64,000 bases of DNA from a virus (IMGVR_UViG_3300025084_000007:47932-111931); one strand, 5' to 3'; numbered from the stretch's first letter, positions 61,344-63,510 are shown. Translations and numbers: made by a program. The notes: a model not told the origin generated them from the letters alone.

Positions 61344-61349
61344 CATTTA

Positions 61350-61391
61350 CGTTCATCCCTCTTCGGGGGGACGCAAGTAAGTCGCGGAACG
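61350..61391 (+). ncRNA. glutamine-II (downstream-peptide)-like riboswitch, module 1
   Basis: P1 CGTTC/GAACG; P2 TCCCTC-TTCG-GGGGGA; junction CGCA; upstream of a DUF4278-like ORF. Confidence 0.7.
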
Positions 61392-61395
61392 GAGC

Positions 61396-61577
61396 CGTTC
61401 ATCCCATGCTAGAACTATTATTCTATACATCACTCACCTGTCAACAAGCCGATGCAATTATGTTTCGGATGAGAACAAATGAGAATATTCCCCCTGAATA
61501 TAAGGTGGAATTGATTGAGGTCATGAAGGAGTCAACTCCTGAATGCTACCCATGGGACGCACACGACTGAAGGAACG
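61396..61577 (+). ncRNA. glutamine-II-like riboswitch, module 2, with an ORF-sized P2 loop
   Basis: CGTTCA-TCCCATG...(142 nt)...CATGGGA-CGCAcacgactgaaG-GAACG. Confidence 0.6.
61406..61570 (+). CDS. 54-aa protein embedded in riboswitch module 2
   Basis: MLELLFYTSLTCQQADAIMFRMRTNENIPPEYKVELIEVMKESTPECYPWDAHD; GGAG at 61391-61394. Confidence 0.7.
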   Translation: MLELLFYTSLTCQQADAIMFRMRTNENIPPEYKVELIEVMKESTPECYPWDAHD

Positions 61578-61612
61578 GGGGAATAAACCACCCTATCTTC
61601 AGGAGTAACAAC

Positions 61613-61780
61613 ATGAACACATTACAAATGGTCAAGAAGCAGATCAATAAGGCATCTGCACTGCACAATGCACAGATCAGTCACACCTCATATCGTGGTG
61701 TTGAGTATGATACTCGTTGTGTAGAGTCTAAGGAGACTCACGGCACATTCTGTTATCGTGGTCGTACTTACAACAAATAA
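61613..61780 (+). CDS. DUF4278-family peptide (IF17 N-terminus-like)
   Basis: 55 aa with two YRG motifs (SYRGVEY, CYRGRTY); AGGAG RBS. Confidence 0.8.
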   Translation: MNTLQMVKKQINKASALHNAQISHTSYRGVEYDTRCVESKETHGTFCYRGRTYNK

Positions 61781-61802: not shown

Positions 61803-61827
61803 AAAGCACCCTTAGGGGTGCTTTTTT
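61803..61827 (+). terminator. Rho-independent terminator
   Basis: AAAGCACCC-TTAG-GGGTGCTTT followed by a T run. Confidence 0.85.
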
Positions 61828-61863
61828 GCTATACTAAATACTGACAACCTATACAGGAGAGTC

Positions 61864-63322: not shown

Positions 63323-63475
63323 ATGAACACAGAGTTCTACGAGGCATTGAGCAATGAAGATGCGCTGTTCGATTTGTTTATCGATCAGTTACATCACTTT
63401 GCTGAATTGGAATTGGAAGAACGTAAGACTACCACTGGGTCAGTAGCTCAGATGGATAGAGCAATTCACTTCTAA
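63323..63475 (+). CDS. 50-aa acidic protein overlapping the tRNA
   Basis: AGGGAG RBS; MNTEFYEALSNEDALFDLFIDQLHHFAELELEERKTTTGSVAQMDRAIHF. Confidence 0.5.
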   Translation: MNTEFYEALSNEDALFDLFIDQLHHFAELELEERKTTTGSVAQMDRAIHF

Positions 63476-63510
63476 TGAATTGGTCGGGGGTTCGAGTCCC
63501 TCCTGACCCG
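63437..63510 (+). tRNA. tRNA-Arg(UCU)
   Basis: Acceptor GGGTCAG/CTGACCC, D arm GCTC/GAGC, anticodon arm ATTCA-CTTCTAA-TGAAT, T loop TTCGAGT. Confidence 0.95.

Follow-up and report, generated by a model that had tools for sequence, protein, structure and literature searches.

The window analyzed here, which is the whole 64,000-nt (64-kb) stretch of DNA, comes from a T4-like cyanomyovirus; over the stretch described below it is 92% identical to Syn33/S-RIM12, and 423 phage records match it. The element is flanked by nrdB and a small ORF on one side and by talC on the other. All features described lie on the plus strand and form a small local unit, consisting of a structured leader (61350-61606), a nested 54-codon ORF (61406-61570), a DUF4278-like ORF (61613-61780), and a terminator-like hairpin (61803-61824). 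The 55-codon DUF4278-like ORF, the regulated gene of the switch proposed below, is a clear member of PHROG 545 (phrog_545, E = 1e-36), and it matches Pfam DUF4278 (PF14105) over residues 26-54 below the gathering score (22.5 bits vs. 25.3, E = 1.5e-4). The nested ORF belongs to PHROG 504 (phrog_504, E = 2e-30), a conserved protein family showing synonymous drift across 120 relatives, and the PHROG families 504 and 545 assign no function to either small protein. The unit ends in an intrinsic-terminator-like hairpin and U-run (61803-61830), in which a 9-bp stem with 5 GC pairs is followed by a T-run.

Several other features were observed around the unit. A T4-late-promoter-like TATAAATA (61316-23) and an NtcA-box-like GTA-N8-TAC (61330-43) are located close upstream of the first CGUUC; most relatives differ there and carry TATAAT 8-9 nt before CGUUCA. 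A tRNA gene (69.6 bits) is located downstream of talC at 63437-63510. In the Syn33 record (GU071108.1, 156860-157099; L316), an annotated 79-codon CDS begins within the first aptamer module, and the annotation of this stretch includes no RNA element.

The exact phage module was found in 6 of ~185,000 species genomes, all of them MAG bins or odd records resembling phage contigs. The carriers (L317-L322) include bins labeled Synechococcus, Verrucomicrobiales, Nonlabens, and Euryarchaeota, and look like phage contigs in cellular bins. In addition, metatranscriptome contigs from four marine runs match relatives at 85-99% identity, for which DNA carry-over is possible. They include pieces across 61379-61580 and 61507-61617, and their common start, 61379, falls where a conserved block has its edge and resembles a branch point of the assembly. 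A sampled-word search of RNA runs returned none with half or more of the words, the highest share being 0.12.

Comparative Analysis

Related loci were collected from IMG/VR in three sets. The first contained 80 loci, found with the DUF4278 protein as the query, and the second contained 120 more, found with a pattern in the aptamer 3' core; the two combined gave 148 unique 370-nt elements. The alignment A1 comprised 106 sequences across the whole leader, in 105 of which pairing was scored. The third set of ~120 further loci was selected solely by a change in the AGUCG strand, and more than 230 related phage sequences were compared overall. Double changes in the strand facing the Shine-Dalgarno (SD) sequence were judged by identical-backbone comparisons instead of tree-based event counts, because the cyanophage loci look mosaic. 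RNAalifold was run on 104 tails, and the small hairpin near the 3' edge of the leader was treated by per-sequence folding because its length varies.

Aptamer Architecture

Judged by sequence comparison, the outer core of the leader is a canonical type-I (glnA-type) three-way junction. Its P1 helix is formed by CGUUC (61350-61354) and GAACG (61573-61577). The 5' strand ('a5') is invariant and 100% paired in 105 sequences, and it keeps its C end where the neighboring strands swap G and C. P2 is a hairpin with a cUUCGg loop (61356-61371) that is 96.7% paired, with both-side changes at 4/4 scored pairs. The joining strand CGCAAGUA (61372-61379), invariant in A1, carries the CG(C/G) ligand-pocket and linchpin bases and the 5' half of the E-loop (AAGUA, 61375-79), and the 3' half, GAAG (61569-72; GAAG or AAAG among relatives), stands directly 5' of GAACG. 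The P1 3' strand together with G61578, the linchpin partner of C61374, is invariant (61573-61578), as is C61374. As in RF01739, P1 closes a three-way junction with the P2 hairpin and P3, and the CG(G/C)AAGUA and GAAG joining strands and the linchpin pair agree with the crystallized Synechococcus type-I aptamer (Ren, 2015). According to the construct sequence given in PMC5393176, the order is CGUUG-A-P2-CGGAAGUA-P3-GAAG-CAACG, where CGGAAGUA agrees with CGCAAGUA and the Rfam consensus, and CAACG-C is the equivalent of the P1 3' strand and its linchpin base. The C61374/G61578 pair corresponds to a long-range pair in the account given in PMC6698751.

The first-pass annotation of this DNA had noted that AGTCG (61380-84) in the loop of 'module 1' is complementary to CGACT (61564-68) in the loop of 'module 2', and read this as a candidate pseudoknot linking the two aptamers. 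The helix is real, but its comparative signature identifies it not as a loop-loop pseudoknot of side-by-side aptamers but as P3 of a type-I glutamine aptamer, common to an outer and an inner core that are nested and interleaved. The two strands are ~185 nt apart, and a 5-nt complementarity is insignificant by itself; it was the comparative data that showed the helix to be real. On A1, P3 is 100% paired in 105 sequences, including a few G.U and one A-U. The decisive test used the loci that had been selected blind to the 3' strand, in which compensatory partners accompanied the changes (positions given by their last two digits). The AAUCG loci (G81>A) had CGAUU (C67>U) in 11/11 unique cases, the AUUCG loci (G81>U) had CGAAU (C67>A) in 3/3, and 40 of the 41 AGUCA loci (G84>A) had UGACU (C64>U), while in GGUCG loci (A80>G) the U was retained in 41/41, giving G.U. 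Variants at 61382 or 61383 were absent from the IMG/VR scans, so that both pairs are invariant and uninformative.

The partners of the remaining CGUUC and GAACG strands were revealed by a G/C swap. The 3' strand of 'module 1' (G[G/C]AACGG) changes together with the 5' strand of 'module 2' (CGUU[C/G]A), and the first CGUUC and the last GAACG show no changes. If the strands are paired side by side, the same 11 sequences of A1 contain C.C and G.G mismatches, whereas pairing the first strand with the last and the second with the third leaves 100% paired. At 61387:61400, G-C was found in 221 and C-G in 14 unique loci, with mixed forms in none, and a scan of all IMG/VR gave 0 uncompensated forms. 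The swap may go back to a single ancestral event, or to a few, that recombination later spread. Additionally, AGUCG and the GGAACGG that follows it are joined by C61385 alone. A linker of one nucleotide cannot run back along 5 bp of helix, a geometric argument that favors the nested topology.

These comparisons show the far end of P3 opening into an inner core, made up of a hairpin P1, a P2 around the 54-codon gene, and a CGCACA strand. Inner P1 (61387-61400) consists of GAACG (61387-91), the loop GAGC, and CGUUC (61396-400), and 61387:61400 is its covarying pair. GGAG (61391-94), in the loop and stem of this hairpin, is the likely SD predicted for the nested ORF. The AUG of the nested ORF (61406-08) is held in the inner P2 5' strand, UCCCAUG (61402-61408), which pairs with CAUGGGA (61551-61557) in the minimum free energy (MFE) fold. 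The conserved 5 bp of inner P2 (61402-06:61553-57) are 97% paired, and 3 pairs have both-side changes. The joining strand CGCACA (61558-61563) contains the CGCA core of the inner aptamer, as in the glutamine-II consensus, and GACGCA is invariant.

The leader scores below the gathering thresholds of both Rfam glutamine models. RF01739 gives 24.8 bits against 35 bits, with module a alone (61348-61395), and RF01704 gives 24.8 bits against 33 bits within 61347-61399. The RF01739 model is unable to span the 185-nt insert in P3. A compact relative without the ORF reaches 34.1 and 19.2 bits with RF01739 and 27.1 bits with RF01704, and Rfam sees two adjacent sub-threshold hits in such versions.

Sequestration of the Shine-Dalgarno Sequence

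The SD of the DUF4278-like ORF (AGGAG, 61601-05), 7 nt ahead of the ATG at 61613, is located in the strand CUUCAG-GAGU (61597-61606), which is paired in the ensemble and in the MFE folds of relatives. The actual anti-SD strand is CUGAAG (61567-61572), which includes the E-loop 3' half GAAG and the nested stop codon UGA (61568-70), and which pairs with 61597-61602 (99.4% paired). This was the sole consensus helix returned by RNAalifold on the 104 tails. The pair 61569:61600 was G-C in 60, A-U in 57, and G.U in 27 of 144 loci, with A.C in 0; on A1 the counts were AU 46, GC 41, and GU 18, with none unpaired, and the double changes were seen on identical loop backbones. The same pair was present in the MFE of 98/98 relatives (mean z = -3.0), with Watson-Crick pairing of only 2-3 of the 5 SD bases. 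In the MFE fold of the window itself, CUGAAG:CUUCAG is also formed, and a tandem G.A loop extends the helix to 61563-64:61605-06; pairing in the unconstrained ensemble reaches at least 98% at 61597-61602 and at 61605. Enclosed by the helix is a small hairpin of variable length (61577-61593), also in the MFE, whose 5' arm starts at a GG made up of the final P1 base and the linchpin base. A hairpin starting from this GG was found in 100/103 relatives with very different stems, and its mean MFE was -3.3 compared with -0.9 in shuffles. Covariation and folding show the CUGAAG:CUUCAG helix and its enclosed hairpin covering the DUF4278 SD. Thus, by covariation and coordinates, a conserved helix joins aptamer-proximal bases to the RBS and would be exclusive with the bound aptamer, as in the platform proposed for Synechocystis gifB.

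A further pairing in the window MFE, between GUUCAU of the first CGUUCAU and AUGAAC at the DUF4278 start, was rejected as unconserved, many relatives starting with ATGGCA, ATGACT, or ATGTCT.

The first-pass annotation had placed the anti-SD elsewhere, within the nested ORF. All four of its motifs were correctly located, and the 9-mer ACTCCTGAA (61535-61543) is indeed the exact reverse complement of TTCAGGAGT (61598-61606), which covers the DUF4278 SD. Counting both strands, the 64-kb window contains the 9-mer 4 times compared with 1.04 expected, so that composition alone would hardly place a copy inside a single leader of ~250 nt. However, the 9-mer encodes Thr-Pro-Glu of a conserved protein, and from the codon usage of the window (ACT 0.47 x CCT 0.51 x GAA 0.59) the chance of these codons being spelled in exactly this way is ~14%. 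In isolation, no part of the leader forms a more stable duplex with the SD segment than the 9-mer (-14.2 kcal/mol, compared with -11.5 for CUGAAG:CUUCAG). However, the ACUCCUGAA strand is not conserved as a pairing partner. The nine positions are 76.2% paired compared with 75.9% in column shuffles, a level reached by 86 of the 500 shuffles. The central U:A pair cannot form in 61/105 sequences, and all 9 Watson-Crick pairs exist in only 4/112 relatives (mean 5.4). The homologous codons read Thr/Val-Pro-Glu/Asp/His, and the third codon base at which U is needed is U in 35%, which is under the window usage of ACT (47%) and GTT (42%). L036, a close relative of the Syn33/S-RIM12 type, reads ACGCCUGAU at this site, and in unrelated ORF families at the nested site the 9-bp complement is missing although the CUGAAG:CUUCAG helix is retained. 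Within the full leader, it takes 12.6 kcal/mol to force the 9-bp pairing, and as a back-up mask with the aptamers folded it is unpopulated in the constrained ensemble. The complementarity that is left over can be attributed to conserved Pro-Glu codons facing a purine-rich SD. The local hairpin AGGAG-UCAA-CUCCU (61527-61540), which had been proposed as an anti-anti-SD, is in the MFE of this window, but it is 61% paired across relatives. Therefore, the 9-bp anti-SD and the local hairpin represent the codon spelling of this lineage, not features of the element.

A 21-codon ORF in another frame (61543-61608) starts 11 nt past the internal AGGAG and ends at the UAA right after the DUF4278 SD. Its AUG is absent from most relatives (GAGTGC), and it is probably due to chance.

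Discussion

Apart from glutamine riboswitches, no RNA sensors of cyanobacterial nitrogen status are known to us, and the expression platforms of these riboswitches are still just postulated. We think it reasonably probable that the leader at 61350-61606 comprises two nested glutamine aptamers with a hairpin after them that sequesters the SD, and that it acts as a glutamine ON switch. By their coordinates, the anti-SD strand and the small hairpin overlap P3 (at 61567-68), the E-loop (at 61569-72), and P1 with the linchpin (at 61573 and 61577-78), so that the folded outer aptamer and the sequestrator should be mutually exclusive. By analogy with the measured behavior of host gifB/DUF4278 leaders, glutamine binding would free the SD and switch on DUF4278 translation. 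When the aptamers were enforced, the unpaired probability of the SD bases rose from ~0 to 0.4-0.7. The enforced fold lies 12-18 kcal/mol above the MFE in nearest-neighbor terms, so switching must be kinetic and draw on tertiary, E-loop, and ligand energy; the decision would probably be taken co-transcriptionally. As a supporting detail, the GAUU:AAUC pairing of relatives that lack the SD is consistent with competition between the P3 3' strand and the start region.

The last codons of the nested ORF, W-D-A-H-D-stop, also supply the 3' strands of inner P2 and P3, the joining strand, and the anti-SD strand, with the stop 31 nt ahead of the SD. Since the stop lies inside the anti-SD strand, a terminating ribosome would unwind this strand 31 nt before the SD; both aptamers and the sequestrator would be melted, which could make the SD accessible without glutamine. 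The general idea of the first-pass annotation, that glutamine sensing and upstream translation are coupled to DUF4278 translation, is thus plausible, but on a different structural basis, in which the anti-SD is 61567-61572 with the nested stop. Base 61569, the covarying anti-SD base, also begins the E-loop GAAG and stands in the middle of the nested stop (UGA/UAA). More tentatively, this base may be under three codes (stop, E-loop, and anti-SD) as part of a two-input gate, in which glutamine, bound to the strand-swapped double aptamer, and terminating ribosomes each open the same SD. The two small proteins might then be expressed reciprocally or one after the other, depending on the nitrogen status of the infected host.

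Translational coupling might also dominate, with ribosomes terminating at UGA 61568-70 opening the SD and glutamine acting chiefly on initiation of the nested ORF, whose SD and AUG are placed in the inner P1 loop and inner P2 stem. In the RNA phage MS2, coat-to-replicase coupling works through an upstream ORF that runs into the strand masking a downstream SD; the cyanophage leader, with its putative coupling, differs in that the strand masking the SD belongs to a metabolite sensor as well. In 133/148 loci, an ORF of 49 or more codons has the same stop. The aptamer loop is occupied by at least four unrelated small-protein families, for example a signal-peptide-like family (MKFL..) and an MLSLALIFF.. 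family. All of them terminate in ..DA(N/H)D-stop in one common frame, where the codons also specify the aptamer core. These observations, together with a middle stop base that is always R, the stop-to-SD distance, and the AUG of the nested ORF in a covarying helix, agree with such coupling. However, compact relatives without the ORF (L109, L111, L218) keep the sequestrator and the SD, so the platform works without it, and UGA/UAA is also set by the RNA constraints of P3, the E-loop, and P2, so that conservation of the stop is no proof of coupling. We consider dominance of coupling unlikely.

Rather improbable, in our estimate, is a glutamine-II-like arrangement, in which the inner (3') module would be a type-II pseudoknot and CUGAAG:CUUCAG its constitutive P2; the pseudoknot would then regulate in competition with the small hairpin or the helix extension, and even an OFF switch, with the SD masked more strongly in the glutamine-bound state, would be possible. 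The order of CGUUC, hairpin, CGCA..CGA, helix 5' strand, GGAACGG, and helix 3' strand is that of the RF01704 consensus, and P1 and P2 are preformed without ligand in glutamine-II (PMC6698751). Moreover, there are loci without module a (L018, inner module only), in which the helix may coexist with ligand binding. When module a is present, however, the 5' strand pairs with the 3' strand of module a, not with its own; the RF01704 pseudoknot between the 5' CGUUC and the GGAACGG of the same module has a G.G mismatch in 11/105 sequences, and the alternative partner is compensated. C67 tracks P3 and not P2, since C67>A breaks the P2 pair and keeps P3. A hairpin of 15-45 nt stands between GGAACGG and the helix 3' strand, unlike in type II, and the host type-II switches tested so far are ON switches. 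Least probable by far is the first-pass model, in which ribosomes on the nested ORF or aptamer folding toggle between the ACUCCUGAA anti-SD and the AGGAG-UCAA-CUCCU anti-anti-SD: despite its perfect 9-bp complement, it is largely refuted as a conserved mechanism by the missing covariation and the energetic cost described above.

Returning to the nested double aptamer, several of its properties are similar to those of host leaders. Both host glutamine riboswitch classes raise the output of DUF4278/IF17 reporters with nitrogen, and a short helix that masks the RBS, adjacent to the aptamer 3' end, has been proposed for the Synechocystis gifB/IF17 leader (Klahn, 2018; PMC6212724; PMC6698751). With glutamine-I (RF01739), the phage leader shares the core order CGUUC-A-P2 hairpin-CG(C/G)AAGUA-P3-GAAG-GAACG-linchpin base, the position upstream of a DUF4278/IF17-like gene, and an RBS-masking helix at the 3' edge, proposed to be melted by glutamine (ON). 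It differs in that P3 is not a hairpin and opens into a second junction whose P2 encloses the 54-codon gene, in that the halves of the outer aptamer are 185 nt apart with sub-threshold Rfam scores, and in that the anti-SD strand includes half of the E-loop and a stop codon. Glutamine-II (RF01704) precedes DUF4278-like peptides of marine picocyanobacteria and is an ON switch in a reporter (PMC6698751). The phage leader resembles it in the CGCA..CGA linker, the GGAACGG strand, and a helix 5' strand directly before GGAACGG, and differs in that the adjacent CGUUC pairs with the other module, that there is an extra hairpin, and that the helix 3' strand continues into the SD. Tandem glnA RNAs (Weinberg, 2010; PMC2864571) likewise carry a pair of glutamine aptamer cores within a single leader, but in the phage the pairing is interleaved with a shared P3, not side-by-side. 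In the literature searched, glutamine riboswitches of cyanophage genomes are mentioned only in passing, and nested cores, an enclosed gene, and this platform are undescribed there.

These results indicate that 'tandem' aptamers can be interleaved around a common helix, and that standard covariance models miss riboswitches with stems opened by large inserts. In the phage copies, compensatory mutations that arose in nature define each helix of the platform. If the proposed switch is correct, T4-like cyanophages might read the host glutamine pool to time an IF17-like protein, a relative of the host glutamine-synthetase inhibitor, which would give a direct handle on phage management of host nitrogen metabolism. 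It would also be a natural case in which ligand sensing and translation of one gene compete on the same RNA.

Natural Variants of the Leader

The relatives comprise hundreds of natural variants with or without the nested gene, with or without the SD, and with one or two sensor cores. Compact double aptamers of ~100 nt without an ORF were found in L109 (3589-3700), L111, L218, L220, and L252. They keep the shared P3 and the SD mask, and have a short hairpin instead of the 54-codon ORF. From the sequences, the nested double sensor seems to have existed first and the enclosed gene to have been inserted into it.

Other loci have no complete first module in the upstream 130 nt (L018, L027, L031, L200, L144, and L166). 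In L018, a promoter-like TTGACT..TATAAT stands right before the second CGUUCA, and L027-type loci contain a degenerate remnant (..CGUCGCUGGAAAAA..) of the 3' part of the first module.

The 3' edge of the leader is also variable. In a subgroup (L044, L066, L091, L141, L152, L177, and L088), the small hairpin is replaced by an extra insert of ~45 nt (..ACGGAUCC-hairpin-GAGAAGGUU..) between GGAACGG and the SD. Another group (L192, L202, L203, L207-L210, and L215) has a DUF4278-like gene (MAQVTYRGV..) without AGGAG. In these loci, P3 has the AAUCG/CGAUU form, and the P3 3' strand pairs through its GAUU with an AAUC right before the AUG.
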